Positions 1,536 through 53,587 of a stretch of DNA of 61,649 nt are shown in pieces; within the stretch, counting starts at the first letter, position 1, and each line of letters opens with the position of its first letter. The stretch is from IMG/VR virus record IMGVR_UViG_3300026518_000001, positions 1 through 61,649 of that record; one strand, written 5' to 3'. The DNA comes from a virus. Its lineage: Duplodnaviria; Caudoviricetes. The notes beneath the pieces are model-generated. The model did not search any database. It was not told the origin of the DNA and saw only the letters and a list, made by a program, of their open reading frames with translations. The position numbers and the translations under genes are program-made.

Positions 1536-3602
1536 TTATTTCTCCTTTATTCTTATAAACTTTCTAATTTCACTATCTTTAAGTGGTTCACTTAACATAC
1601 TATTCATCTCATAAACAACTTCCATTGCATAACTTGCATTAGTTAAATCTCTAACAAAAGATCCGAGTCTAAACAAGTTATTAACTCTATTACCTTGATA
1701 AGTACTATTTACAAACCATTTCTTTATTCCATAGATTCTCCTTTCAATTTGATCCATATCATTTGGCTCCAAATCTTCTAATGAAGCTTTTTGTTTCTCA
1801 ATAAGTTCATTTACTTTTGTTTCTGGTAGAAATGGTATTGGATCAAATAATTCAACTTTATTAATATATATTTCAGCTTCTTTATTTGTAAACCATAATC
1901 TACTTATATCTTTTGCATTATGATCATATATTTGTAAATTAATAGCATTAGCTATATTGTCATATAATTCAATAAATCTATCACTATCAATAGTTACAAC
2001 ATACTTAAAAGGAATAATAACTCTGAATCTATCAGCAATTACTCCTCCTTTATCTTTCTGATGACTTTTAGTTGTATAGATTAAATAAGTATATGGTTTA
2101 AGATATTCGATAGTATCTTCTAATGAACCACCTTCATCAATATCTAATGCAATACAATTGATATTTGGTAATACATTATCTTTCTTTCTCTTACCATCTT
2201 TAAAATGAGCTAATACAAAATTACTTATATCACTATGGATAAGTTTCTCTATTGATTTAGTAGATCCAAACATTGGTACTTCCATTGAATTATATTGAGT
2301 ACTCTTTTCTCTTTTGTCAGGATTTGGAATACTTAATATAATCTTATTTGGATCACTATTATCTAATGATTTAATTTCAAAGAACTTAATCTTTGAACCT
2401 TTTGTTATTAACCTTTCATTATTTCTATAACAATATTCTTCAACTAAAAACATATCTTCTGAAAATGTACTTCTATTAAATACATCTTTTTCTAATATCT
2501 CAGATTTATTTGTTTTACCAAGTTGTTTAATAATGCTATAAATTCTTTTATGTTGAGGTTCAACACTAAATAACTTCTCAGTTGTATTTCTACATCTTTT
2601 ATAGAAGTTATATGAATATTCAATATCATCATAACTAATTATATTTCTACCTAAACTAATAGCATTTAATGCTGCTAATTTAACTATCTTAGATAATGAT
2701 CCAAGTTCTGCTGAATATCTTTCATCATATTTATTACCATTAGCAAAGTCTATTAGTTCTTGTTGGATCAAATGAATATATTCATTAGCTGTTTCATCAC
2801 AAGTAATTGCTTTATAATTGCCTTTAAACGAATCTTTTATATTATTTGATATAAAGTTATTAACATTAATAAATCTATCAGTATGAGATTCTATTGGACT
2901 ATTAATCACTATATCACTTGGTTCTGAATAAAAGATAAACGATCTTCTATAAATACCACTTGATAAAGCTTTATTAAAGAACTCAAAGTTTTTCATACTT
3001 CTTTTTAATCCAACAGATGATCCAAGCAATAACATATTAGAAACAATACCTTTTATATTTTCATTAATAGATGATTTAATCATCTTACCTAATAATTCTC
3101 CATCATATAATTGTTTCATTTGTTCTAAATTTGAATCTCTGATAATATCCATTATTTCATCGTGAGTAATATTCAATGATCCAACGAATGAATTAGATAA
3201 AGCTAATGCTCTAAGATAAATACCTTCACTAGTTCCATGAATACTATTCATAAATGATGGTAAATAACTTTTTAAATCTACTTCATTACCATCAATCATT
3301 ATCCTATCTTCCTCAATAATTCCTGTTCCTTTTTTATATCCACTTTGTAAAGCATTATTCCACTTCTTTGGATCTTCTAAATATTCTTTATACATTATAG
3401 ATGCTATTGCTGATTTACCACTACCACTTGGTAATAAAGCGATACCAAAGAAATTAATCTTTTCCTTCTTATTTAGATAATGAACTTCTGGTTGTATAAC
3501 ACCTAATATAGATGAAGTATAGAACCAAAATTCCATTTCAACAAGTTCCGTTGGAGATTTAAATTGTAGTTTTTGATGAATATAATTATATAAGTGCTTC
3601 AT
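1536..3602 (-). CDS. primase-helicase fusion (N-terminal DUF3987-like P-loop domain, C-terminal AEP primase + PriCT), N4 gp43-like
   Basis: PSGSGKS Walker A and HDE Walker B; AEP motifs IALDIDEG, YTTKSH and RFRVIIP; GNRVNNLF PriCT-like end. The ATG at 3602 with an AAGGAAG RBS is preferred over the GTG at 3644. Confidence 0.8.
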   Translation of the reverse strand: MKHLYNYIHQKLQFKSPTELVEMEFWFYTSSILGVIQPEVHYLNKKEKINFFGIALLPSGSGKSAIASIMYKEYLEDPKKWNNALQSGYKKGTGIIEEDRIMIDGNEVDLKSYLPSFMNSIHGTSEGIYLRALALSNSFVGSLNITHDEIMDIIRDSNLEQMKQLYDGELLGKMIKSSINENIKGIVSNMLLLGSSVGLKRSMKNFEFFNKALSSGIYRRSFIFYSEPSDIVINSPIESHTDRFINVNNFISNNIKDSFKGNYKAITCDETANEYIHLIQQELIDFANGNKYDERYSAELGSLSKIVKLAALNAISLGRNIISYDDIEYSYNFYKRCRNTTEKLFSVEPQHKRIYSIIKQLGKTNKSEILEKDVFNRSTFSEDMFLVEEYCYRNNERLITKGSKIKFFEIKSLDNSDPNKIILSIPNPDKREKSTQYNSMEVPMFGSTKSIEKLIHSDISNFVLAHFKDGKRKKDNVLPNINCIALDIDEGGSLEDTIEYLKPYTYLIYTTKSHQKDKGGVIADRFRVIIPFKYVVTIDSDRFIELYDNIANAINLQIYDHNAKDISRLWFTNKEAEIYINKVELFDPIPFLPETKVNELIEKQKASLEDLEPNDMDQIERRIYGIKKWFVNSTYQGNRVNNLFRLGSFVRDLTNASYAMEVVYEMNSMLSEPLKDSEIRKFIRIKEK

Positions 3603-37405: not shown

Positions 37406-37837
37406 ATGATAAATTATGAAGAATTAACAATTCAAGAATTAAAGAAACTAGCTAAAGATAAAAATATAGATTTAGATAGAAAAGATACTAAAGCTATTAT
37501 TATTGAGAAAATAAAAGAAAAAAATACTAATGAAGTTAAAAGAGTAACTAAATTAGAAAGTGTAAGAAAAAGAATGATGGATAAAAGAAAAGTAATTGTT
37601 ACTAAACTTAATCCAGAAGATACTGTTAGAGATAGTATTTTAGTTACTATACTTAATGCTACTGGTACTTATTCAGCTGCTGTACCATTTAATGTAGAAG
37701 TTATGTTACCAGAACCAATCATTAAGAATCTTAAAAATATGAAATATCAAGGTTGGGAAAAAAGAAGAATTGCTGGTGTAGGTCAAATGGATGCACCAGT
37801 AACATTACCAGCTTATAATGTACAAGAGTTATCTTAA
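37406..37837 (+). CDS. N4 gp55-like protein with an N-terminal HeH/Rho-N-like domain
   Basis: LTIQELKKLAKDKNI..KAIIIEKI; VIVTKLNP..VPFN. Confidence 0.7.
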   Translation: MINYEELTIQELKKLAKDKNIDLDRKDTKAIIIEKIKEKNTNEVKRVTKLESVRKRMMDKRKVIVTKLNPEDTVRDSILVTILNATGTYSAAVPFNVEVMLPEPIIKNLKNMKYQGWEKRRIAGVGQMDAPVTLPAYNVQELS

Positions 37838-37930: not shown

Positions 37931-38536
37931 ATGAATGAAGATCAATTACAACTAATGTATGGTAATCAACCACAAGTACAAGGATATTATACTGATAATA
38001 ATGGAGTACAACAAGTATATGTTAGATCTCCTGAACAAGTACAACAAGATATGAATTACTGGAATATGACACATAAAACTAGTGATGTTAGTGCTGGAGC
38101 ATTACCTAACAATACTAATACAAATACTTCTGTTGGATCAACAAATAATTCATTATCTAATGGTATGACACAAGCATATAAACCATATACTCAAACAGTT
38201 GATGATTATAAACTTAACTATTTAGGTATGAGTTATGATGAAGCTTTAAATAAAGCAAAAGAATTAGGCATTGATCCAAAACAATTAATGAAAGGTCCTA
38301 ATGGACAAGCTATACTTAAAAATGAAAGAAGTTTCACTGATAAATATGGACAAGATATTGGATTAGGATTAGGAGTAGCTCAATTAGGATTAGGTATTGG
38401 ATCATTCTTAGAAAATAGAGCTACAATGAAAAAACAAAGAGCATTACTTAGTGAACAATTAAGAGAATCAAAAAGTGAATTTGATAGAGTTAATAAATTA
38501 AGAAGTAAATTATCTGCAGAATATAAAGGACAATAA
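37931..38536 (+). CDS. ejection protein (N4 gp52-like)
   Basis: Gly-rich hydrophobic helix followed by a coiled coil; no Cys. Confidence 0.6.
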   Translation: MNEDQLQLMYGNQPQVQGYYTDNNGVQQVYVRSPEQVQQDMNYWNMTHKTSDVSAGALPNNTNTNTSVGSTNNSLSNGMTQAYKPYTQTVDDYKLNYLGMSYDEALNKAKELGIDPKQLMKGPNGQAILKNERSFTDKYGQDIGLGLGVAQLGLGIGSFLENRATMKKQRALLSEQLRESKSEFDRVNKLRSKLSAEYKGQ

Positions 38537-38537
38537 T

Positions 38538-40880
38538 ATGGGTACAACATTATATAATACTCCTGCATTGAAAGCTGGAACTAATGTAAATCAATTAAAT
38601 GCATCTGGTATTAATCAAGGTATTAATCAAATACAACAAGTATTAAACCAAGCTAAACAAAATGAAAAATATAATGAAGTTAAACAAGAGAATGAATTAG
38701 CTCAACAAAAACAAATTGTTGATAAAGCTAATAAAGTCAAATTAATGACTAATTTAGAATCTCAAATAGATAAATATAAAACAGTTACAGATAATGATAC
38801 TCCTGAAACTATTAAAGAGAAGTCTAATAAGATTAAACAATTATTATTACAAGCTACTGATGTAGCTAATCAATATGGTTTAACTAATACTGCATCTAGT
38901 TTATTACAAGATAGTGATAAGTTATATAATTCATATAAAGATCAATTATATAAGAAATATGCTACTAACTTAGCTAGTTCAAATATAAATAAAATATTTA
39001 ATCCAAATGATATTAGTAATCAAACAGATGATTATCAAAAATATAATCAAGTAATGAAACAAGCTGATACTATTAAAGATCCAACTCTTAAAACATATTA
39101 TTTACAAGCAGCTAATAACTTATTAGCAAGTGATAAAGATTCTATAGTTGATGCTAAGAAAAAAGAAATACAAATGGCTAATGATATTAGAACACAAGAA
39201 AAACAAAATCAAATAAATGATCAAATTGGATTAGTTGATGATACAGTTAAAGATCCAAGTAAACTACCATCATCATTTCCTAAATTTGTTGAATTATTAA
39301 GAAAAAGAAATGTTAATGTAGCTAAACTTATGCCTTACATTAAAACAGCTTATTCTAGTGCTATTTCTTCTATTGATATAAATAATAAAAAAAAGCAAAT
39401 AATACAAGATGCTAACTTTAAAAAAAATCTTAATAGTATAAATACTAATTCAACTAGTGTAACGGATGGTTCTCATTTAGTTACATTAAATAATAGTTTT
39501 AAAGTTGTACAAAAAAATGGAAAACAATTAGTTACAGCTGTTGGATCAGTAGATAATAATATGTCTACACAATTAGGTAATACTTTAAATACATTAGATA
39601 CATTGATCCAACAATTAAATAAAGCAAAAGATAATAATGTTCCACAAAACGATTTAGATAATTTAAAACAGAATATAAAAGATACTTGGAATAAATATAC
39701 TAAATTAAAACAACAAAGTTTGGATCTATTGAATAATAAAGTTAAACCAATTAATACAAATGGTAGTTTAATAGATACGAATAATGCTATTGATTTATTT
39801 GAATGGAAATTAAATAATACTTCAGATCCAAAAGAGAAACAAGCATATACACATCTAATGAATATGATTAAAAGTGGATATTTAACTGATATAAATGAAA
39901 ATAAATTAGGTTACTATAAAGAATCTTTTATATTTAAAACTCACAATAATTTATTTAGTAAAAATAACTTACCAAGTACTAAACAAGCATTGTTAGTATT
40001 CTATGCTATGAATGGTGGAAATGATGCTAATACAGCTAAACAGATTAAATTAGCTCAAAATAGTACTCAATTAAATAATATTCTTAAAAAGAATAAAGTT
40101 CTAAGTAAATTAATAGAAACTAATAATCAAACTGGAGCAAAACAAATAGATAGATATATGTTACAAGATAGTGTTGAAAAAGCATTTGGTAAATCAAATA
40201 AAATTGATGTTAATAATGGTGTAAAAGATGAAATTAACAACATTGGATCAGATGTTAATAATATTAATATTAATAATAAAAATATAGATGTACTTAATAT
40301 AGATAAGTTTAAACCAGATGTACTTAAAAATAAACCTGAATACAATGAAGTAATAACTAGAAAAATAATGTTCTCTAAAAATAATATGAATATATTAGCT
40401 CAAATAAAATCAGGTGATATTAGTACTAATCAAGGTATGTATTTATTTAGTAAAGCATATAAGAACCAAAAGAATTTTAAATATATAAAACCTTACATTA
40501 ATCAAGAAATCAAAGCATTAAAAGATGTAAATGAAATATCTATTAAAGCTAAAGACTTACAAATATTTAAGACTAGTGAATCAGGAGTATTGTATTTACC
40601 TAAAGTAGGAATACCATCAGATAAATTAATACAAGCAGCAAATAAATTAGCTATTACAAGACAAACTGGAATTAAAAATATTAATGATTTAATGAGTAAT
40701 AAAAAATTTCAAAATATATTTATGAAGATGTATAACACTAACTTAGCTAATATTAAACCAAATAATAAAGCAGTATATTATGAAAGATTACCATTAACTT
40801 CAAAAACATATACACAATATACAAATATGTTATATAAGATATTAATGAAAGCACAAAAAGAATATAACAAGGAGAAATAA
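38538..40880 (+). CDS. ejection protein (N4 gp51 position)
   Basis: 780-aa helical Q/N-rich protein with no Cys seen, upstream of the vRNAP region. Confidence 0.6.
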   Translation: MGTTLYNTPALKAGTNVNQLNASGINQGINQIQQVLNQAKQNEKYNEVKQENELAQQKQIVDKANKVKLMTNLESQIDKYKTVTDNDTPETIKEKSNKIKQLLLQATDVANQYGLTNTASSLLQDSDKLYNSYKDQLYKKYATNLASSNINKIFNPNDISNQTDDYQKYNQVMKQADTIKDPTLKTYYLQAANNLLASDKDSIVDAKKKEIQMANDIRTQEKQNQINDQIGLVDDTVKDPSKLPSSFPKFVELLRKRNVNVAKLMPYIKTAYSSAISSIDINNKKKQIIQDANFKKNLNSINTNSTSVTDGSHLVTLNNSFKVVQKNGKQLVTAVGSVDNNMSTQLGNTLNTLDTLIQQLNKAKDNNVPQNDLDNLKQNIKDTWNKYTKLKQQSLDLLNNKVKPINTNGSLIDTNNAIDLFEWKLNNTSDPKEKQAYTHLMNMIKSGYLTDINENKLGYYKESFIFKTHNNLFSKNNLPSTKQALLVFYAMNGGNDANTAKQIKLAQNSTQLNNILKKNKVLSKLIETNNQTGAKQIDRYMLQDSVEKAFGKSNKIDVNNGVKDEINNIGSDVNNININNKNIDVLNIDKFKPDVLKNKPEYNEVITRKIMFSKNNMNILAQIKSGDISTNQGMYLFSKAYKNQKNFKYIKPYINQEIKALKDVNEISIKAKDLQIFKTSESGVLYLPKVGIPSDKLIQAANKLAITRQTGIKNINDLMSNKKFQNIFMKMYNTNLANIKPNNKAVYYERLPLTSKTYTQYTNMLYKILMKAQKEYNKEK

Positions 40881-43800: not shown

Positions 43801-46181
43801 AAGAATATAATAATAAATTAACTAAACTTAGAGAGAAATTAAATAATAATCCTGAAGGTATTAAAGTATTAGATAAATTAGATACATTGGATACATTAAA
43901 TCCTGAAGAAAAGATTAGTTCTATTGGATCAGTTATAAAAGATATATCTAATAATAAATCTATTAGTAATGAAACTGATAAATATAGATTATTACAACAT
44001 CTACAAAAACAATTACAAGAATCTATTAATAATATTAATAATAGAGAAATAGATGAAACAACTTATAATGATTTAAAACACTCTATTAATAATGCATTAA
44101 ATGATATTGATGAAGTTAATAGAAAATATAATTCTATATTACCAGAAGATAATGAACCAAATGAAGATCATATAAAAGCTAAAGCATTTGACTTATTAAT
44201 TAAAGCTATTATAAGAGAACTTAAAAATGATGATAATATTAACACATTATTGAATAGTAAAAATGTAGAAGATTATAATAATAAGATCCAAAAGGGTGCT
44301 AAAGAAGTAAAAAATGATATTAATAATAAAGGGTTTAAAACTAAGAATAAAGAATATAGATCAATACCTGAATATCAACAAAAGTTGGATCAATTATTTA
44401 ATGAATATACTTCTGATCCAACAGATAAGTTAAAGTCAGAAATAACTAAAGTATTAATGGATTACAATACATTTGTATTAAGTAGAAAAGATAAAGTATT
44501 AAATGCTAAATATTTTACATTTGATTTTGCTAAGAATATATTAAATGAAAATAATGATATTAGAGATATATTTAAAATTAATAGAAGTAGAATACATCAT
44601 GTACTTGGAGATGAATTATATAATACATTAGCAAATAATGTTAGAGATATACTTTATACAAGTTATAATGATAATGTAATACATATCTATAAGAATGCTA
44701 AACAAGTTGGTTCTATTAATGCAATGATGGATACTAAACAAATAACTAATATCATTAAAGAATCTCAAAGAAGTAATACTGTAGAACAAAAGACTACTAA
44801 TACTAATACAGAACCAAAACAAAGTAATACTACTACACCTACTAATCACTCACCTGTTGGATCTAATGAAAGTAATATTAATAAAACTACTGAAGAGAAA
44901 GTAGTTAACACTATAGCTAATACTGAAGAAGCTATGCAAAATAAAGCAGAAAGATTAAGAAAGTTAGGTTACAAAGCAGAACTAAAAGTATTTGATAAAA
45001 CTGATTCAGTAAAAGATAAGTTATATAAAAGATTAATGCTTAAATATAGTAAGAATGGTATTGTTAGATATGATGTTACATATAAAGGTACAGTATATAG
45101 ATTTAATGAAAATGAATTTAAAAATGTATTAAATAATGTATATAAAGATTCTATGGTAAATGATGGTAAATATAGTGATCCAAAAGAAAGAAGTAAAGCA
45201 TTATTTAAAGAAACAATGATAAAAGATCCTATGTTAGCTAACAAAGAACCAATTAATTTAAATCAATATATAGCTGAATATAGATTAAGAGAATATGAAC
45301 CAAAAAATAGTTTAGATAATCAAAATGGATTAGTTAGTAAAGTAGTAAATACTTATATAGAACATCAAAGTAGCAATGTCGAACCATTACAAGGTATGAA
45401 TTATATACCTTATGTTAAATTCGATGAGAAAGATAAAAATGGTAAAGTAATAGGTAAATCTATTTATTTTATTACATCAAAAGTTAATAGTGAAAATCCT
45501 GGTAAAACTAGTTTAAACAAAAATAATAATGAAAGTAATTTCATTAAATTTACTTATTTAGATGAAGATAATAAATTAGATGATAAATTATTCAATGATT
45601 TAAAAACATTATCTAATTATAATATGTTTCCATATGATTGGAATGATAAAACATATAGTAATGGTAAACCAATAGAACCAAAGAAAACATCTACAACTGA
45701 ACCTGTTACAGAACCAGAAAAGAATACTAATACTAAGAATACAGAACCAAATAAATATAATGAACCAGAAGTTCCAGAATTTGATGAATCAGTATTAAAT
45801 AATGAGTTTCATAAAGATAAAGAAACTGAAGAATTTAAAGGTAATCAAGAAGATATTAAAGAATTAAATGATAAAATAGATGAATTATCTCAATTAAAAG
45901 AAACATATAATAAAACAAAAGATAAATTAAAAGATAAAGTTAGTCAGTATGGTTCTACTATTGAAACTGTAAAAGGTGTTAAAATATCAGTTAAATCAAA
46001 TATGAAATATATTAATAAATTGATTGATAAAAATGGTGAAGTAGATGAATTATCTAATATACTTCAATTATTAGAAGATTATCATTCAAGTATAAACAAA
46101 GATAATTTACAAAGTAAAACAGTAGAACTAAATTTAGCAATAGAAAAAGAATTAGCTAAATTAAAACTTAGATGTGAATAA
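40884..46181 (+). CDS. large ejection protein equivalent to the N-terminal part of the vRNAP; GIY-YIG-like domain near the N-terminus
   Basis: Gly/Ala-rich membrane-active region (SEAIPEMYEQ..AGWYGGVMG); a single Cys at the penultimate residue. Confidence 0.65.
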   Translation: MDVLSQLQQIRKKIKKQDGNSNNDPILGDETSYLDGRDSYVNPVVQHNEQQSDVAIDTLNSTGSKAITIGNKTYFKTNNGLDVNTSNNPVGYLFEDIDKQKSKLLALQSVYKDQVINEQNKLLKKGINSAEDETKLDQLNYALQNPDMATLMEMQGLNPDKDNININTSFGSNNKQLQDWWAKVQETKEYSSTNPKDKDKFGTLYVLYNPKNNQTKVGYAKDTAQLRYKTDDLVNKGWIIQDQVRSKDAASLEQEFHNIARQDNSLIDNTGNAYNQYGQTTDIEHHQLNSGSSEIYNGKLLNTPDQKTQQFNQNYQWLYNTKIQKQQAEHYVQYKGYLSNLARAVPTSIDSWLADKGEGAYEAVRGGWNDLVTSVNPNKKSVAYWSKGTVYKLIDYEKKYGNEHFGYSFKNLVEGHKNVQTALAQFGDGNVGLGVIDLAKSLKAAPEQLIMSLPDMATLGATGPIGWITKGLYTAAVYNDTIQQYRKNNNFVDPTAEYKLSLAGLSTLDTLLQTEAIHYIVKGPNILFADKAAGKIASSLDDVKLISPKTVYKTLYGTGLKILGKSINIGSKAFVSEAIPEMYEQALQDVASKLYTDKYKDKSISDLLKDSWKDIAEAGWYGGVMGHGLKHISSANEIFGEPIQEYNNNPNKILKEESYRQIQSLPVTERANIINEVLPKTKGIEKDYKQMQNILNNGNINNIGLKNIYNTSKNNNIMKDALTKSMLENIGYISHQLKTQDNNAYILLNNILEKDVDNLTSNDKDQLLNVIVNDLFNNVDTKTKNRLDTLIANRIKINSNNILNTYKNKYQNMVNIIAYAGDKNNDYLANRVMLDTKTPKDIVDANMKILEGIKYIDKSIKSDKEPTSMIKSVTNTISNVLNSFGTKKYSPIERLKSIDALQSGIKLAETQLKNNKSLRSNKQLKKMIKDYTTQLESMKQRDLLLARYAPKAIIGSENIIEPNKKKSKTKQEQEYNNKLTKLREKLNNNPEGIKVLDKLDTLDTLNPEEKISSIGSVIKDISNNKSISNETDKYRLLQHLQKQLQESINNINNREIDETTYNDLKHSINNALNDIDEVNRKYNSILPEDNEPNEDHIKAKAFDLLIKAIIRELKNDDNINTLLNSKNVEDYNNKIQKGAKEVKNDINNKGFKTKNKEYRSIPEYQQKLDQLFNEYTSDPTDKLKSEITKVLMDYNTFVLSRKDKVLNAKYFTFDFAKNILNENNDIRDIFKINRSRIHHVLGDELYNTLANNVRDILYTSYNDNVIHIYKNAKQVGSINAMMDTKQITNIIKESQRSNTVEQKTTNTNTEPKQSNTTTPTNHSPVGSNESNINKTTEEKVVNTIANTEEAMQNKAERLRKLGYKAELKVFDKTDSVKDKLYKRLMLKYSKNGIVRYDVTYKGTVYRFNENEFKNVLNNVYKDSMVNDGKYSDPKERSKALFKETMIKDPMLANKEPINLNQYIAEYRLREYEPKNSLDNQNGLVSKVVNTYIEHQSSNVEPLQGMNYIPYVKFDEKDKNGKVIGKSIYFITSKVNSENPGKTSLNKNNNESNFIKFTYLDEDNKLDDKLFNDLKTLSNYNMFPYDWNDKTYSNGKPIEPKKTSTTEPVTEPEKNTNTKNTEPNKYNEPEVPEFDESVLNNEFHKDKETEEFKGNQEDIKELNDKIDELSQLKETYNKTKDKLKDKVSQYGSTIETVKGVKISVKSNMKYINKLIDKNGEVDELSNILQLLEDYHSSINKDNLQSKTVELNLAIEKELAKLKLRCE

Positions 46182-46192
46182 AAGGATAATAT

Positions 46193-49100
46193 ATGAATTG
46201 TACCAATGTAGATATAAATAAGTTAACAACTAAATTAAAAACAGAAGATAAACTAATAATTGATCCAAAGATAGATGTAACACTTAACAAGATATATCAA
46301 CAAGCTTTGGATCTTATCAATAAGCAAGTTAAATTAGAGAATGAAGTACAAGAAAAGTTTAATGAGTTAAAAGATCAGAATGAAGGTTATGATGTAGAAA
46401 ATAAAGCAAAACTATTGAATACTTTAATATATACATTTAAAAAGTATTTAGGTAGTAATGCTATTCAATTCAATGGACAAGAGTTAAATCCTCTTATCTC
46501 TTGGATCCAAGACAAACAAGATGATAATACATTTGTTGACAATATGAAACAAACTATAAAGGATGAATATAGATCATTAATAGAAATGAATGAAGGTTTT
46601 ATTAAGATAGAAGATAGTCAATTACTAAAAGATAAAATGAATACTATTAAAGAATTATTTGTTAGAAATAATAAATATAAAAATGTATTATTTGATCAAT
46701 TGATAGGTGATATTAATAAACTTAATAGACCACAAAAGATAGACTTTTCTAATAAAAATATGAATATAAAATCTATTAATAGAGCTTATGTAGAAAATAA
46801 TGAATTAAAGTATGATGTTGTTTATGAGCAAAAAGGTACTGCTGAAGATAATTATAAGAAAGAATTAGTAGAAGCTACTATATCTGCTAGTGATATAAAT
46901 AATGGTTTTTTATATCAATTAGGTATACCAATTAGAAATGATGATACAAATACTAACGAGTTCCAATTAAATCCTGATTTACATAAAATATTTAATAAGG
47001 TATTACCTGCATTCTTAAATGAAATTAATAATCCTCAATTTATGTCTGATGATAAGATATCACAAATGTTTTATGGTAAAGATGCTGATAGAGTTATAGG
47101 TACTGAAGTTACTCAACAAGAATTTAATAATATTGCTAGATCAATTAGACAATATGGTTTTCCTAGAAAAGAATTATATGAGAAACTTGGTAATGCTATA
47201 TTAGATATAGCTCATATAAAAATTATAAATAAATTAAGATATGATGAAAGAAAAGCATTAGCGAATCAATTAGGAGCATTCTATTTACAAAATTTAATAG
47301 AACATAGTAAAGATAATAAAATTATAAAAGTACAAGATACATTAGTTAATATTAATGATAAACAAATGGTATTAAATAAATTAGAATTTGCTGATAATTA
47401 TAATGAAGAAGCAAAAGAAAGATTAAATAATGCTATGAGTAGTTATTCTGCTACATTACAAAAAATAACTAATATTAGATTTGCACAACCTGAACCAATA
47501 GAATACTACAAATCAATTAAAACATCTACTAATGTAAAAGATGCTGAAGCATATCAAGTATCACCTAAGATATATGATTTTATGAGAAAAGAACAGAATG
47601 TAGTATATAAAACTAATATTGCTTATGATGCTATTAAACTATTGGATCAAACTACTTATTTAATTACTGCTGGTGGAGAAGATCCAAATGAGATAGAACA
47701 TTTGCCTGTTGAAGAAAGAGAATCAGTAGTTGGTAAGAATAATGATCTATTAAGAAGAATGGAAGCATTAAAAGATAATGAAGATATATTATCTTTTGGT
47801 TCTAAGTTTAAATGGAGTGAAGTTAAAAACTTAAGAACAATGATGGACAGTATAGTAAATCCTCAAGATAACAAAGTACATAGATTTTTAGTAGATGAAA
47901 GAGGTGTTACTTACAATAAAAATAATGAAGTAATTGAGAAAGAAATAAATACTAATACATATGTAACAAAAGATACTGCAAACTTATATAAATTAGCATT
48001 ATCACAAGCATTTGATTTAGATACTGATAAAAGAACTGACAATAGTTTATTAGATGAAATATCTAATAATTATTTAGATTTTACTTTTAATGATAAAGAT
48101 GGTTCTATTAATGAAGTAATAATTAATGATAAACTAAAACCTATAATTAATGATGGTTCATATATAGATAAAGTAGTTAAATTATCTTTAAGTAAAGAAC
48201 CAACATTAGTAAAGAAACAGAAACTACAAGATTGGATCAAACAACATCAAGATGAATATAAAGCATATTTAGATTTTATTAAAGGTACTGAACATATACA
48301 TGCATTTCAAGCATTAATAGATATTAAATATTTACAAGTATCAAAATCTAATAATAAATCTATACTTAAATTAGAAGCTGATGCTATTACATCTGGTATG
48401 GTATTAACTATGTTACAAACAATAGGTGTTACTGTTAATACTGAAGAAGAAATGAATAAATTAGTTAATTTATTAGCTAAAGGTGGAATATATGTATCAA
48501 CTGATAATAATACTTTTGGTTTAAAAGAACCAAATGAAGAACAATTAGCTAAATTAAATAAAGTATTACAAAATACATTAAAAAGTAAACAATTAGCAAA
48601 TAATGCAGAATATTTAACTCATGGATTTTTAAAACAAAACTTTAAGAACTTTAATGATTTCTATGAAACATTAAGTGATTCATTAAATGATTATATGCAA
48701 TCAACTACATTTAAACCAGAACAACAAACTATTGTTAATGCTTTTGGATCTAGTTTTAGTAGAAAACAAGTTAAACCATTCCAAATGGTATATGTATATG
48801 GAGCTTCATTTAAAAATATTATGGAGAAAACTTTTTATGAAATAGCATTTAATCCATTAAATAAAATGTTATATGAATTTGGTAATAAAGGTGGACAATT
48901 AAAACATTTAATTGCTAAATTAAATAAAAAGACAGATGATATAGATGATCCAAAACTTAAACTAATTAAACAGTTAATCAATAATGGTAATGATATAAAA
49001 GAATATATTAATATATATAAATGGAATAAAGAATTACAAAAAAATGAAGTAATAAATACTAAGGATTTATCAGAAGAAGAATTATTAAATACTAATTTAT

Positions 49101-52100
49101 CTAATATATCTTTTAAATTTGATAGCAAACTCGTAAATTATATTAAAACACTATTTAAAGAGACTTATGAACCAGCATTTGAATATGCGTTTGGTCAATA
49201 TAAATTTATAGATGATTATAGAAATACTGTTAAGAGTATGTCTAATATTCTATATGAAACTTCTAAAGAAATCTTTAATAAACAATTACAAGAAGAGATT
49301 AAAAAAAGAGGTTACAATGATATTAACCAAGTAAATAATAAAGAACTTACTGATATAATAAGTAACTTAATTAAACAACATAAATACTATACAATTAAAT
49401 CAATACAATCTACTAATACACATAATTCATTTATACCATTAGATAAATTTGATAGAAATAAAAATGGTAAACAATTAATGATTAATATTAATGGTAAAGC
49501 TTTATCTACAAATTTAGATGATAAACATATGGTTAATAACGCAATAGCTACTCCTGTAACAACAATTCACCAAATAGATAGTAATATTATAGTAGATACT
49601 TTACAAACTATGAGAGAAGCTTCTAATGGTAAATTACATATAGGTCATATATTTGATGCATTACTTATGCCTTTGGATCTAAATAGTGTAGATAGTATTT
49701 CTGAATATAATAAAGAAACTATTAAATCAAATGCTAATTATTCAGTAGCTCAAGAAATGATGAAGCAAATAAATGATATTTATACATCTGAACCAGAAGT
49801 ATTAAATAATATCTTAGCTAATAATATAAAAGATTTAGTTAATAATGGTGTAGATATAGATAATATTAAAGATATATTATCTGGTAATATAGATGTAGAT
49901 ATTAATAATGATATTATTAAACATTTATATTCATTAAAAAACATATCTAATAATAAAGAATTAGTTGCTAAATTTAATTTATTACTTGATATAGCTAACT
50001 ATAATAAATTAGCTAGTAATTCATCTAATATAGCTAATACTAGAAATGAGTTTTTTAAAAAAGATATGGTTGTAGGTCATTCTTATCTATTGGATCCTTA
50101 CTCAATAAAAGATAAAAATCCATTATATATTCATAAAGGTAGAAATAAAATTAAACCTACATTAGACCCATTAGATAGTATAGAATCAATTAGATTAGAT
50201 CCAACAACAATAGATAGTATAAAAGAATCAAATACTAACAATAATAAACCTACATTAGAACAATTAGATAAAATATATAATAATGATAAATATGGATCAT
50301 CATCAACTGAATATATGGGTGAATTACAAGATAGAGATACATTTAGATCTCCTGAAGAAGTAATAGATTATCTTAATAAAGAACTACCAAATGATATTGA
50401 TCCAATAATCAAAGATAACTTTATTAATCTTACAAGTAAATCATTTAATACATTAGATAAAATAAATGTATTAAACTATCTAAATACTACATTTAATAGA
50501 GGTTTAGCTAATATAGATACTAACACTATATCATTAAGTAAATCAGCTGGATTATCTAATCAATCTACTAGTGAAATATATATGCATGAATTAATGCACT
50601 TATATACAGGACTTGCATTTAAATATAGTACTAAATTAGTAAACCAATCATTAAGATTACAACAAGCAGTTAAGAAATATATACAAGATAATGGTATAGA
50701 TACTGATACATTATTTATTCCTGATGGTTTACCACATACAAGAGAATTAATTAATAATTCTAAAAAGTTATCTGAATATGCTTTTAATGGTGATCCAGTA
50801 GAATTTATAACAATAGCTTCTACTAATAGTAAATTAAAACAATTTATTGATACAAATAATATAAAAATTAAACATTCAGCAAAAGAATTTAAACCAAAGA
50901 ATTTATTAGAAAAAATAATATCTAAAGTATTTGCTACAGTAGAGAATTTATTTAATACTATTACATCATCTAAGAGAGTTACATCAAAAGAAATAAATTC
51001 TATATTAAATAATGCAGTAGTTATGACAAATGCTCTTAGAAGCGGTAAGAATGCAAATGATAATGTATTATCTAAAATTGATATACCAAAGAAATATCAA
51101 GATGTAATAAATAACAAAATTAAGTCAACAGTCACTAAACAAATAGTAGAACCATTTAAGAAAACTACATTATATAACGAAATAAAAGATGTGAATGTAA
51201 TTAATAAAATATCTAATAAAATATCTAAAGTTAATAGTGATTTTGGTAAATTATTTAGAGATGTAGCTAATGAAATAACAAGTACTTCTAATAAGTTTGG
51301 AGACTTTTTCCCAATGTTTACTAAGATAAAATATGAACAAGAAACAATAAGAAATCATATAAATAAAGCAATAGAAGATGTAACTGATAACTTATTAAAA
51401 GATGCATCAGAATTTGATAAAGTTGCTCTTTCCCATTTGGTTCTTAAAACTGATATATATAATGTTTACGATAAAGCTTCACAAGCTACTGATATGATAA
51501 TAGATGAAACTAAAAGATTAAATAGAATAAATGAATTATCAGAAGAAATTAAATTATATACAGATCCAAAGACATATAATGCAATGATGAATCAAGCTCA
51601 ATCATTAGGATATTATATTGCAACTGGTTCAGTAACAGAACATAATTTAATGTTAAATGCTCATAATATAAATAATTTATTATTTGATCAAATGCGTACA
51701 TTACCAAAACCAAGTATAGATTTAACTAAACAATTAGATGAATTTATTAGTTTAATAGCATTACATAATACTGATCCAGTATATTTATCAAGTGATTATA
51801 TATCTAAGAATAAAAGAAATATAAATAACTTAGTTAAATTTGCTAAAGGATTATTAAGTAAACAAAGAAAAGAATTATTTACTAATCCAACATTAGAAGT
51901 AAAAGGATTTATTAGACCTAAGAATACATCTAATTATGAATATATAACAGTTAAAGCAAATAAAACTAACAACTATAAAAAAATAGGATTTAATCAATAT
52001 AGTGAACCATTTACTACTTCATTAGCTGATGGTTCTAAAGAAGAATTAATAGTACTTAAAAGACTTAATATATATCCAAACTATACTAAAGGTATAGTAG

Positions 52101-53587
52101 AAGTAACTAATACAGAACACTTCGGATCTGATTTATATGATTTAGATAATGTATCGCCATTTAGAAAACCAGCATTATTAGAAAAGATAAGTAGAAATGC
52201 TACATTATCAACAGTAAATAAACCTTTTAAATTATTTAAAGTAGATAATAAAAATGAATATGCAGTACCATTGTTGAATGATAGTGGAACAATAACTAAT
52301 TATAGAAGTGGATCAATAAATAAATTACCAATTATTAATAATAGAGCTGATATGTCAATAGATAGTGTATTAGCTAATACAGTAAGTCATAATACATTAA
52401 AGATTAATGGTAAAGCTATTAATAAATTAATATTAGAACAACAACAAAAAGCTTATGAAAAAGCTAAAGATAAGTCAGATTATATGCCAATATGTAAACC
52501 AAGTGTAGCAAATAAATTAGGATTAAAAGATTATAATGAAGAATTTTATGCTTTACTTCCTTCATATACAAGACAAATGATTGGTAATAAAGTATATTAC
52601 ATTAATAAGAATCTTACGAACCAAATATTTGGATATAAAGATACATCTATTACTAATATACCTTTACTTAAAAAAGCTAATCCAAAGTTTGTTAGAGTAT
52701 TAGGAATAAGTGAAAAATTACTTAAAGATTTAGTTAAACTACTTAAATTCCCATTAGTATTTATTAACTCATCAGTAGTATTTGGTAACTTAATTTCAAA
52801 TGTAATAGAACTATTAAAAATAATGCCATTAAGTCAAATAGTAAGTGAATTTAAAAATAGATGGAATTTATTAAATGATTATCAAACTAATCAACAAGAA
52901 CTAAATAAACTTAAATTATTACAACAAGCAGGTTTAACATCTAAAGAAGATAATTATAAAATTAAAGTATTAACTCAAAAATTAAATAATAATCCAATGC
53001 ATGATATTATTGATGCTGGTCTTATTGGATCTATTATTGATGATGTTACATTAAATAATGATAATAATACTAATTTAATTACTTCTAAAATAAATGAACA
53101 TAACTTAATAAAAAATAAAAATGTTAAATCATTACTTGATACTATATTTTTGACTCAAGAATCTTTACCAGCTAAATTAGGATTAAAGACTACTCAGTTT
53201 ACAGATGGTATTGCTAAATCTATCTATTATGAATACTATAAAAAACAAGGTATGAGTAAAGCACAATCATTAGAATTATCTAATGAGTTATTTATTAATT
53301 ATTCTATAAATGAATCTAAATATCTTAAATATCTAAATGATACTGGTTTATTTATGTTTAGTAAATTCTTATTACAAACACCTAAAGCATTAGTTAAATC
53401 AACTATACAAAATCCAATTGGTTTTTTAAAACAATTAGGAATTAATATAGTTGATCAAGCTATACCTGATACACTTGATACATATAATTATAATTTGTTG
53501 GATATAATAACTAATAGAAGAATTAATCTATATCAACAAATAGAATATAACATTAATCCAATAGACAAATGGAGTAGATTATTTTAA
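46193..53587 (+). CDS. virion RNA polymerase, catalytic and C-terminal part (N4 gp50-like), with a zincin HExxH motif
   Basis: EADAITSG (48374), RKQVKPFQMVYVYG (48761), TIHQIDS, HIFDA (49646) and HELMH (50585). Confidence 0.92.
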   Translation: MNCTNVDINKLTTKLKTEDKLIIDPKIDVTLNKIYQQALDLINKQVKLENEVQEKFNELKDQNEGYDVENKAKLLNTLIYTFKKYLGSNAIQFNGQELNPLISWIQDKQDDNTFVDNMKQTIKDEYRSLIEMNEGFIKIEDSQLLKDKMNTIKELFVRNNKYKNVLFDQLIGDINKLNRPQKIDFSNKNMNIKSINRAYVENNELKYDVVYEQKGTAEDNYKKELVEATISASDINNGFLYQLGIPIRNDDTNTNEFQLNPDLHKIFNKVLPAFLNEINNPQFMSDDKISQMFYGKDADRVIGTEVTQQEFNNIARSIRQYGFPRKELYEKLGNAILDIAHIKIINKLRYDERKALANQLGAFYLQNLIEHSKDNKIIKVQDTLVNINDKQMVLNKLEFADNYNEEAKERLNNAMSSYSATLQKITNIRFAQPEPIEYYKSIKTSTNVKDAEAYQVSPKIYDFMRKEQNVVYKTNIAYDAIKLLDQTTYLITAGGEDPNEIEHLPVEERESVVGKNNDLLRRMEALKDNEDILSFGSKFKWSEVKNLRTMMDSIVNPQDNKVHRFLVDERGVTYNKNNEVIEKEINTNTYVTKDTANLYKLALSQAFDLDTDKRTDNSLLDEISNNYLDFTFNDKDGSINEVIINDKLKPIINDGSYIDKVVKLSLSKEPTLVKKQKLQDWIKQHQDEYKAYLDFIKGTEHIHAFQALIDIKYLQVSKSNNKSILKLEADAITSGMVLTMLQTIGVTVNTEEEMNKLVNLLAKGGIYVSTDNNTFGLKEPNEEQLAKLNKVLQNTLKSKQLANNAEYLTHGFLKQNFKNFNDFYETLSDSLNDYMQSTTFKPEQQTIVNAFGSSFSRKQVKPFQMVYVYGASFKNIMEKTFYEIAFNPLNKMLYEFGNKGGQLKHLIAKLNKKTDDIDDPKLKLIKQLINNGNDIKEYINIYKWNKELQKNEVINTKDLSEEELLNTNLSNISFKFDSKLVNYIKTLFKETYEPAFEYAFGQYKFIDDYRNTVKSMSNILYETSKEIFNKQLQEEIKKRGYNDINQVNNKELTDIISNLIKQHKYYTIKSIQSTNTHNSFIPLDKFDRNKNGKQLMININGKALSTNLDDKHMVNNAIATPVTTIHQIDSNIIVDTLQTMREASNGKLHIGHIFDALLMPLDLNSVDSISEYNKETIKSNANYSVAQEMMKQINDIYTSEPEVLNNILANNIKDLVNNGVDIDNIKDILSGNIDVDINNDIIKHLYSLKNISNNKELVAKFNLLLDIANYNKLASNSSNIANTRNEFFKKDMVVGHSYLLDPYSIKDKNPLYIHKGRNKIKPTLDPLDSIESIRLDPTTIDSIKESNTNNNKPTLEQLDKIYNNDKYGSSSTEYMGELQDRDTFRSPEEVIDYLNKELPNDIDPIIKDNFINLTSKSFNTLDKINVLNYLNTTFNRGLANIDTNTISLSKSAGLSNQSTSEIYMHELMHLYTGLAFKYSTKLVNQSLRLQQAVKKYIQDNGIDTDTLFIPDGLPHTRELINNSKKLSEYAFNGDPVEFITIASTNSKLKQFIDTNNIKIKHSAKEFKPKNLLEKIISKVFATVENLFNTITSSKRVTSKEINSILNNAVVMTNALRSGKNANDNVLSKIDIPKKYQDVINNKIKSTVTKQIVEPFKKTTLYNEIKDVNVINKISNKISKVNSDFGKLFRDVANEITSTSNKFGDFFPMFTKIKYEQETIRNHINKAIEDVTDNLLKDASEFDKVALSHLVLKTDIYNVYDKASQATDMIIDETKRLNRINELSEEIKLYTDPKTYNAMMNQAQSLGYYIATGSVTEHNLMLNAHNINNLLFDQMRTLPKPSIDLTKQLDEFISLIALHNTDPVYLSSDYISKNKRNINNLVKFAKGLLSKQRKELFTNPTLEVKGFIRPKNTSNYEYITVKANKTNNYKKIGFNQYSEPFTTSLADGSKEELIVLKRLNIYPNYTKGIVEVTNTEHFGSDLYDLDNVSPFRKPALLEKISRNATLSTVNKPFKLFKVDNKNEYAVPLLNDSGTITNYRSGSINKLPIINNRADMSIDSVLANTVSHNTLKINGKAINKLILEQQQKAYEKAKDKSDYMPICKPSVANKLGLKDYNEEFYALLPSYTRQMIGNKVYYINKNLTNQIFGYKDTSITNIPLLKKANPKFVRVLGISEKLLKDLVKLLKFPLVFINSSVVFGNLISNVIELLKIMPLSQIVSEFKNRWNLLNDYQTNQQELNKLKLLQQAGLTSKEDNYKIKVLTQKLNNNPMHDIIDAGLIGSIIDDVTLNNDNNTNLITSKINEHNLIKNKNVKSLLDTIFLTQESLPAKLGLKTTQFTDGIAKSIYYEYYKKQGMSKAQSLELSNELFINYSINESKYLKYLNDTGLFMFSKFLLQTPKALVKSTIQNPIGFLKQLGINIVDQAIPDTLDTYNYNLLDIITNRRINLYQQIEYNINPIDKWSRLF

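Follow-up and report, generated by a model that had tools for sequence, protein, structure and literature searches.

Why is a giant polymerase that phage N4 makes as one chain free of cysteine (Cys) encoded elsewhere as two pieces, each with a Cys at its cut end? The question is raised by IMG/VR virus record IMGVR_UViG_3300026518_000001, whose positions 1 to 61,649 make up the window analyzed here, that is, the whole stretch at its full length. This record is complete: it spans 61,649 bp, carries direct terminal repeats, has 24.5% G+C, and is the complete genome of a distant N4-like podophage. Its virion RNA polymerase (vRNAP) is divided between two adjacent open reading frames (ORFs). We find that the split, the placement of Cys at the cut ends, and the conservation and polarity of this placement extend over many junctions in two phage groups, with no Cys where the polymerase is uncut. 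These patterns point to a reversible covalent link between successive pieces.

Both ORFs lie on the plus strand. The first piece, ORF A (P0001; 40884..46181; 1765 amino acids (aa)), which would stand for the N-terminal domain (NTD) of an N4-type vRNAP, ends in ..KLKLRCE and has its sole Cys at residue 1764 (TGT, 46173-46175). Its TAA stop (46179-46181) and an 11-nucleotide (nt) spacer together occupy 46179..46192; the spacer, AAGGATAATAT (46182-46192), holds a Shine-Dalgarno-like AAGGA at 46182-46186, and an ATG follows 6 nt after that motif. With this ATG begins the second piece, ORF B (P0002; 46193..53587; 2464 aa), which would carry the RNA polymerase (RNAP) domain and the C-terminal domain (CTD). 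ORF B starts MNCTN, with Cys3 encoded by TGT at 46199-46201, and its one non-terminal Cys is Cys2101 (52493-52495, plus strand, in the context ..YMPICKPS..). The frames of the two ORFs differ (start modulo 3 equals 0 for 40884 and 2 for 46193). These coordinates bear out the original prediction, which had read from the letters a sole Cys near the C-terminal ..LRCE of the first ORF, an MNC start with a single further Cys in PICKP in the second, and an 11-nt, out-of-frame gap with an AAGGA of its own.

The window thus departs from two traits of the gp50 family, which is a single polypeptide of ~3500 aa and has no Cys: here there are two ORFs of 1765 + 2464 aa in different frames, whose 4229 aa include 3 Cys, one at each cut end and one internal. 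Since the other 35 window ORFs of at least 150 aa contain 82 Cys in 10,723 aa (0.76%), ~32 Cys would be expected in ORFs A and B together. Under uniform placement, the probability that the Cys of ORF A falls in the last 5 residues and that at least one of the two of ORF B falls in the first 7 is ~1.6e-5 (0.0028 x 0.0057), a figure that is post hoc for the window. A fused ORF, against which the original prediction had asked that the reads be checked, does not appear in the contigs (not raw reads) of three public runs from two studies, which bridge 46170-46205 without insertion or deletion; one of the three runs carries a synonymous ACC -> ACA change at 46204, adjoining Cys3.

What the two pieces are follows from profile comparisons. 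ORF B has an E 4e-95 match to PHROG 2206, 'virion RNA polymerase', with aa 1537-2432 aligned to profile positions 2426-3378 of 3406. In a tblastn search, Vibrio and Pseudomonas N4-like vRNAPs of 21-23% identity are among the matches listed of 208 records, all below 60%. A hidden Markov model (HMM) of seven unsplit vRNAPs, N4 gp50 included, maps a predicted single-subunit RNAP domain at aa 308-1198 (47114..49786, plus strand) to N4 residues 1183-1989 as a weak match (independent E-value 7.4e-8), and a homologue of the C-terminal, or encapsidation, domain at aa 1612-2422 (51026..53458, plus strand; also the PHROG 2206 region) to N4 residues 2623-3460 (independent E-value 2.9e-45). The columns invariant in 5/5 relatives include D730-A-I-T-S-G-M736, R857, K861, Y869-G870, H1126 and D1129. 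These would correspond to polymerase motifs A (DAITSGM), B (R857/K861/Y869-G870) and C (H1126/D1129). By sequence similarity, then, ORF B is a distant N4-type vRNAP that comprises the RNAP domain and the CTD. Extrapolation places its residue 1 near N4 residue 880-1000, and the low-complexity NTD-RNAP linker of N4 has been assigned by cryo-electron microscopy to residues 907-1006 (PMC13434306; for this and all papers cited below, the part of the text available to us is meant). The window polymerase therefore appears to be cut roughly at or beside the NTD-RNAP linker of N4 gp50.

ORF A is 19-23% identical to the first-piece ORFs at the same position in two related loci, L002 and L006, with C1764 invariant, and this position and homology suggest that it stands for the NTD. 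It has no match in PHROGs, in Pfam or in the HMM of unsplit vRNAPs, no tblastn match in 50,697 phage records, and no relative among 7997 scored candidates of a 5.8-billion-protein set. Searches of the PDB returned a chance-level match for ORF A and no sequence match for ORF B. ORF A also lacks any hydrophobic or transmembrane segment (Kyte-Doolittle at least 1.0 over 19 residues). Packaging of the window polymerase in the virion and its ejection into the host are probable from homology and synteny.

Is the placement of the Cys kept in relatives? A HMMER search with ORF B aa 1-1200 against 1.84 billion representatives yielded ten relatives (P0014-P0023). Four of them (P0014, P0015, P0016 and P0018) begin where ORF B does, with a Cys at position 5 or 6, and P0016 and P0018 have an additional Cys as the last or third-last residue. 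In another four (P0019, P0020, P0021 and P0023) the N-terminal part is fused to the polymerase domain, and a single Cys lies within the last four residues. The 334-aa P0022 has Cys3. Among aligned homologues, Cys3 of ORF B is invariant in 5/5 and Cys1764 of ORF A in 3/3. Outside these ten, P0003 (2426 aa) has its only Cys at residue 7, and its nearest cultured relative, PT15-A5, is unsplit.

A five-homologue alignment (A1) scanned against viral and metagenomic contigs gave 3 + 18 loci; scans of the viral contigs with P0002 alone or P0003 alone found nothing. L005 was left out as the same contig as L002, and L022 as too short for a junction. We count a junction as complying when the upstream piece has a Cys followed by 0-4 residues and the first Cys of the downstream piece is at position 2-5. 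By this measure 28/30 junction rows in the window and 19 related loci comply, or 29/31 once a 93-aa middle ORF of L021 (see below) is counted, so that relatives with the split do keep both terminal Cys, as the original prediction had proposed to verify. The rows fall into 22 clusters by flank sequence, 21 of which have a complying member, and cover at least the NTD|RNAP boundary, the RNAP-CTD region and further cuts that create middle pieces. Of the 72 Cys that the polymerase pieces contain over 75,594 residues, 59 are junction-terminal, and five of the 13 others lie in the probable intein of the unsplit polymerase of L019. An alignment of the window junction flanks with relatives fused at that point was tried, and the sequences were too diverged.

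The Cys are also polar. None of the 24 outer termini carries one (0/11 complete N-termini of first pieces and 0/13 complete C-termini of last pieces, counted within 9 residues), and middle pieces have one Cys at each end. Cys only at inner ends indicates a head-to-tail chain in gene order, and neither dimerization nor a generic end effect. As a control, the 218 other ORFs in the same loci contain 1.25% Cys, with a Cys among the first 7 residues in 14 of them and among the last 5 in 21; both terminal Cys occur together in 2/105 adjacent same-strand ORF pairs (18 loci). Because both of these pairs involve the mini-piece of L021, the true control count is 0/103. Ten full-length or near full-length vRNAP homologues (1784-3881 aa) and N4 gp50 have no Cys, and pieces in which NTD and RNAP or RNAP and CTD are fused have none at the uncut boundary. 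Cys are thus present only where the polymerase chain is cut.

All downstream pieces have their own ATG, and a Shine-Dalgarno-like stretch precedes it in the six junction sequences inspected. In L004, two polymerase pieces are separated by 1.6 kb (L004:3380-5005) that contain opposite-strand ORFs of 258 aa and 66 aa, which suggests that such splits may come about by the insertion of genes; for the 66-aa ORF there is a sub-threshold match to Phage_pRha.

The same rule is found in cultured phages. In the Alteromonas phages vB_AmaP_AD45-P1..P4 an N4-like vRNAP occupies two adjacent ORFs, with the break resequenced after polymerase chain reaction (PCR) (Garcia-Heredia et al. 2013, PMC3821669). In AD45-P1 (KF005317; L024:10624-22348, minus strand) we find that the 2495-aa ORF has its only Cys at 2493 (..SKHCKQ) and that the next ORF, of 1409 aa, has its only Cys at 4 (MTIC..); GenBank marks this region of KF005317 only as a 'potential frameshift'. 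The authors saw cysteines and took them as a sign that injection of the protein is improbable, the terminal and paired placement going unremarked in the available text (PMC3821669). AD45 and the window thus share an N4-type vRNAP in two adjacent ORFs and the terminal-Cys rule, and differ in the site of the cut, which falls between the RNAP domain and the CTD in AD45 and between the NTD and the RNAP domain in the window.

The rule reaches further, to phages whose polymerase is of another kind. The crassvirus virion polymerase is an unrelated two-barrel enzyme (10.1101/2020.03.07.982082), and it is made together with two giant neighbours. In eight genomes of crAss-like or Flavobacterium phages, picked for divergence from 136 matching records (L026, MH675552, crAss001; L027, NC_021806, phi14:2; L028, BK010471; L029, NC_055880; L030, KU599878; and L031-L033), 12/13 junctions have the terminal Cys. 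In crAss001 a single Cys stands 2 residues from the C-terminus of gp47, Cys5 and a further Cys 8 residues from the C-terminus are present in gp50, and gp49 has just one Cys, at 5. In phi14:2 the only Cys of g067 is its last residue, g066 has Cys at 3 and 2179 of 2180, and the only Cys of g065 is at 3. The other complying genomes are p-crAssphage, cr111_1, Fpv2, cr55_1, cr272_1 and cr116_1; a fused 4401-aa protein of Fpv2 has a single Cys, at residue 4400. Both crAss001 gp47 and cr116_1 gp047 are encoded on the strand opposite to their partners, and this arrangement, together with the gap in L004, places the link at the protein level and not in translation. For AD45-P1, phi14:2 and crAss001 the pieces have been reported to be components of the virion (PMC3821669, PMC10172136), and record NC_021806 carries tandem mass spectrometry (MS/MS) notes for those of phi14:2. 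Inter-subunit disulfides have been described in the crAss001 virion, in tail and portal-vertex proteins (PMC10172136). In its available text that paper does not use the word cysteine or discuss the termini of the polymerase proteins, and the available text of the phi14:2 preprint mentions neither cysteine nor disulfide (10.1101/2020.03.07.982082). Crassvirales and the window share the terminal-Cys pattern and would share giant virion-packaged cargo proteins, which in Crassvirales must pass the tail partly unfolded (PMC10172136); they differ in that the crassvirus polymerase is unrelated and several crassvirus pieces have internal Cys.

Middle pieces show how the ends are used. In an apparent 283-nt gap of L021 lies a 93-aa ORF (L021:9494-9775) whose third and third-last residues are Cys. 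The first 39 residues (85% identity) and the last 25 (68%) of the 701-aa middle piece of L008 make up this ORF, with both Cys kept, and on this comparison it is probably a natural adaptor-only variant from which the interior of the L008 piece is gone. In sequence terms, the junction ends behave as modules. The 483-aa middle piece L011:9316-10767 is ~40% identical to the first ~500 residues of the last piece that follows it (L011:10769-14359), and such resemblance suggests that new pieces arise by duplication of a capped module. A similar relation is seen in L015, L016, L008 and L021.

Some middle pieces have recognizable contents. A 210-aa piece of L003 and its three homologues (L003:12229-12861; P0024-P0027) are all capped MAC...NKIC and have no other Cys, both terminal Cys being invariant in 4/4. 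The NADAR-like signals of the L003 piece comprise a sub-threshold Pfam match (22.4 bits, cut-off 35.1) and, for a low-confidence model (pLDDT 58), weak top Foldseek matches to YbiA (E 0.023) and to the NADAR-ADP-ribose complex 8bau (E 0.088). As a lead only, these signals suggest that this piece may be an injected enzyme that reverses ADP-ribosylation. The 871-aa middle piece L020:3302-5917 consists of pentapeptide repeats (Pfam E 8e-54) with Cys 3 and 869, in a locus with at least four consecutive Cys-capped pieces. In the unsplit polymerase ORF of L019 (L019:3323-13363, 3' end open), 5 Cys at residues 230-466 coincide with a sub-threshold Intein_splicing match (E 7e-6, aa 277-517), which suggests an intein within the N-terminal region of this vRNAP.

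How might the two ends of the window polymerase meet? We predicted a complex of P0001 aa 1580-1765 with P0002 aa 1-200, using our own shallow alignments and three controls. The prediction has an ipSAE of 0.80, against 0.00 for the best control; the mark used for this score is reached by 58/80 solved complexes and by 2/110 mismatched pairs. Between runs, at least 47% of contacts are shared, and the partner pLDDT is 49-55. The predicted contact involves the tail of the first piece, aa 1654-1764 (45843..46175, plus strand, Cys1764 included), through residues 1654-1689 with heptad-like spacing, 1706-1726 and 1747-1764, and the head of the second, aa 3-63 (46199..46381, plus strand, Cys3 included). 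Both Cys fall within the predicted helical interface (residues 1757-1764 and 3-6). Since the two ends are predicted to form a helical bundle, the link would not be a bare flexible one, and here the analysis departs from the picture of the original prediction.

Taken with the pairing and polarity, this leads us to consider it probable, with modest confidence, that successive pieces are joined head-to-tail by a disulfide and held as one thread during ejection. We infer the Cys-Cys bond, its disulfide nature, its timing, co-ejection as its purpose and its later reduction from sequence patterns. On this proposal the window vRNAP would be translated as two polypeptides, and the tail of the first piece and the head of the second would associate in a small bundle of helices, matching the correct ends and bringing Cys1764 and Cys3 together. 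The thiols would oxidize to an inter-chain disulfide once the virion leaves the reducing cytoplasm. Because the Cys lie within a few residues of the ends and other Cys are nearly purged, the product would be a topologically linear thread with tiny stubs. Such a thread would survive unfolding for ejection, the leading piece pulling the next along the narrow channel of tail and ejectosome. For N4 vRNAP, ejection in an unfolded state through a ~35 Å channel, as beads on a string, has been proposed (PMC13434306), and unfolding is likewise considered necessary for such passage in PMC10172136. The reducing host cytoplasm would then reduce the bridge and free the polymerase from the N-terminal piece.

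Several observations weigh against this proposal. P0017, which has the same start as P0002, lacks an N-terminal Cys and has no terminal Cys at all. Two junction rows do not comply: at L018 j3 the Cys of the upstream piece lies 15 residues from its end, and L012 j1 has no Cys, on a contig labelled cov 1.9 whose relatives are contiguous there. Extra Cys also occur, as a CxxxxC in the last pieces L006:13925-18307 (Cys72, Cys77) and L010:6849-8336 (Cys108, Cys113), as many additional Cys in p-crAssphage gp44 and in cr272_1, and as C2101 of P0002 itself, which has no assigned partner. The CxxxxC pairs lie ~70-110 residues from the N-terminus of the last piece, and Cys2101 aligns with Cys2926 of the closest relative, P0014 (PICKP / PLCSP), a position at which P0015 has Gly. 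Among the crAss-like phages, cr116_1 gp049 lacks an N-terminal Cys and a 215-aa ORF is inserted in that gap, which may be an intron case. The 857-aa p-crAssphage gp47 (L028:1588-4161) has its only Cys 1 residue from the C-terminus and the next ORF, gp46, has no Cys, so that this terminal Cys has no evident partner next door. Gels of AD45 virions show two separate bands, of 270 and 175 kDa, in a report whose available text leaves the gel conditions unstated (PMC3821669). The predicted bundle has low pLDDT (49-65), and a non-covalent bundle might suffice without a covalent bond. The vent and gut habitats are partly anoxic or reducing, which makes spontaneous oxidation less certain, and a thiol oxidase, thioredoxin or Dsb protein, sought in the other 62 ORFs of the window, is not among the 25 of 27 Pfam families listed. 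Finally, chains of 3-4 pieces need specific flanks to pair chemically identical thiols, and one such pair was modelled.

Other roles for the terminal Cys can be weighed against the same evidence. They could be functional without linking one piece to the next, by bonding to some other virion component (such as another ejection protein, the portal or the inner capsid), or by setting the order of assembly or packaging while the bundle alone holds the pieces. The strength of the predicted non-covalent interface by the model's own score, the solitary terminal Cys of p-crAssphage gp47 beside a Cys-free gp46, and the conservation of C2101 of P0002 in P0014, its partner unassigned, all accord with such a role. 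We nevertheless regard it as unlikely, as an external partner would need neither the strict polarity (0/24 outer termini) nor the one-to-one co-occurrence at 29/31 junctions, and the other proteins of the ejection operon have no Cys to pair with. The original prediction had also named a shared metal site. In such a site the terminal thiolates, perhaps together with the chain-end amine or carboxylate or an acidic residue, would jointly bind Zn, Fe or Cu. Such a clasp would hold successive pieces, would work in anoxic habitats, and would release the pieces upon loss of the metal. Pairing, polarity and conservation fit it equally well, the habitats are partly anoxic, and an acidic residue often precedes the C-terminal Cys (..IECKE, ..ALECK, ..QKEC, ..IKDC). 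Each chain end offers one Cys, however, with no conserved His or second Cys nearby; a two-thiolate site is weak and would probably be lost under the unfolding forces of ejection, and it is real disulfides that are seen in crAss001 virion proteins (PMC10172136). We judge a metal clasp improbable, and less likely than a disulfide.

Recoding, by a frameshift or a hop between Cys codons, would yield a single fused chain, and it draws on the TGT on each side of the 11-nt gap in the window and on the many tight junctions, with 1-nt overlaps or 1-24-nt gaps. With 0-4 sense codons between the Cys codon and the stop, though, a ribosome at the stop does not have the Cys tRNA in its P site; every downstream piece has an ATG of its own, in the window as AAGGA-N6-ATG; the 1.6-kb gap with opposite-strand ORFs in L004 and the opposite-strand partners in crAss001 and cr116_1 speak against it; and AD45 virions show two polypeptides (PMC3821669). 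Recoding is thus largely refuted, and we give it very little credence. An assembly error or a chance placement of Cys is hardly credible at all. The 'potential frameshift' flag on AD45-P1 in GenBank, and L012 j1, which resembles a broken ORF on its contig labelled cov 1.9, could be taken in that sense, against which stand the same break and Cys in the independent assemblies L002 and L006 and in the contigs of the three runs, the PCR resequencing of the AD45 break (PMC3821669) and, for chance, the ~1.6e-5 for the window alone and the control count of 0/103. We also considered a split intein or trans-splicing, a system that shares with the window separately translated halves of one ancestral protein and a Cys at the junction. 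We rejected it, since the 0-4 residues after the upstream Cys and the 1-4 before the downstream Cys leave no room for intein halves; no intein family is found in P0001 or P0002.

The neighbourhood of the polymerase genes resembles that in N4. The gene order of the window is as in N4: terminase, tail fibres, portal, gp57-like, major head protein, small Cys-free ORFs, polymerase. Just upstream of the polymerase ORFs are a 143-aa ORF (37406..37837) and two putative ejection proteins on the plus strand, of 201 aa (37931..38536) and 780 aa (38538..40880), assigned by position only to the gp52 and gp51 positions of N4; the latter two have no PHROG or Pfam family above threshold. All three have no Cys, as the original prediction had noticed for the upstream ejection proteins, and its statement that N4 vRNAP is a single Cys-free chain is likewise correct: N4 gp50 (3500 aa), gp51 and gp52 have no Cys each, in agreement with PMC11445570. 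Suppression of Cys in the ejection operon is documented for Schitoviridae (gp71 homologues 0.00075%, against 0.865% proteome-wide; PMC11445570) and has been ascribed to passage through tail and periplasm (PMC11445570, PMC3715699). A Pfam sweep of the other 62 ORFs of the window lists an SU10-type portal, a T7-like RNA_pol domain in a second, smaller ORF, Thy1, YopX, a metallo-beta-lactamase / anti-Pycsar Apyc1-like protein, a NUMOD/I-HmuI-like endonuclease, lysozyme and holins. No RNA runs are among the sequencing runs listed for the window.

Comparison with N4 shows what has changed. N4 gp50 (Schitoviridae) and the window have homologous RNAP domains and CTDs, the same gene order, and a polymerase and upstream ORFs that are nearly free of Cys. 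N4 has one chain of 3500 aa with 0 Cys, whereas the window has two chains (1765 + 2464 = 4229 aa) with a Cys at each cut end; identity is about 21-23%, and the first piece has no detectable similarity to the N4 NTD. A functional parallel may lie elsewhere. In two-chain translocated toxins the chains are joined by a single inter-chain disulfide, which undergoes reduction once inside the cytosol of the target. By analogy only, the window polymerase would work on this principle: one disulfide would tether an unfolded chain during its passage along a narrow conduit, and reduction on the cytosolic side would release it; there is no relation in sequence or fold, and the toxin chains come from proteolytic nicking of one precursor, whereas separate genes encode the pieces here.

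Split vRNAP genes (AD45), multi-protein crassvirus polymerases and the suppression of Cys in ejection proteins are already known. Full-text literature searches, which did not extend to supplements, found no account of paired Cys at cut ends with head-to-tail polarity, or of a coupling by them. In their available parts, PMC11445570, PMC13434306, PMC10654107, PMC3821669, PMC3715699, PMC10172136 and 10.1101/2020.03.07.982082 do not describe terminal or paired Cys at polymerase breaks. The rule itself reverses the 2013 inference that Cys in the AD45 polymerase mean that it is not injected, and it turns 'potential frameshift' breaks into real gene boundaries.

What could the rule mean for these phages? 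The exit of megadalton-scale proteins through a ~35 Å channel is stated as an open question for N4-like and crAss-like phages (PMC13434306, PMC10172136), and the joint, ordered delivery of several separately made polypeptides is equally open. One Cys per cut end and almost none elsewhere gives a concrete mechanism for such delivery, namely covalent head-to-tail concatenation that is reversible in the reducing cytoplasm. This mechanism is cheap to test, because three cultured phages (AD45-P1, phi14:2 and crAss001) carry the rule. The rule also gives annotators a signature for injected cargo, possible anti-defence modules included, and suggests a natural design for reducible protein trains.

In its broadest form, the near-terminal Cys would be a general modular coupler, by which proteins are strung head-to-tail in gene order, disulfide-linked, packed and ejected, in two unrelated polymerase groups and with extra cargo, until reduction in the host uncouples them. 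We hold this to be a serious possibility that falls a little short of probable. If it is true, the coupler has been adopted by phages with N4-like single-subunit and with crAss-like two-barrel polymerases, and split gp51 homologues may use it as well; for split gp51/gp72 homologues, PMC11445570 set aside Cys close to the ends of 'truncated' predictions as errors. Cargo would be spliced into the injected train, such as the 210-aa NADAR-like module of L003, with three homologues, and the 871-aa pentapeptide-repeat module of L020, and even a bare 93-aa head-plus-tail adaptor, as in L021, would be allowed. Once reduced in the host cytoplasm, the train would come apart as free enzymes.

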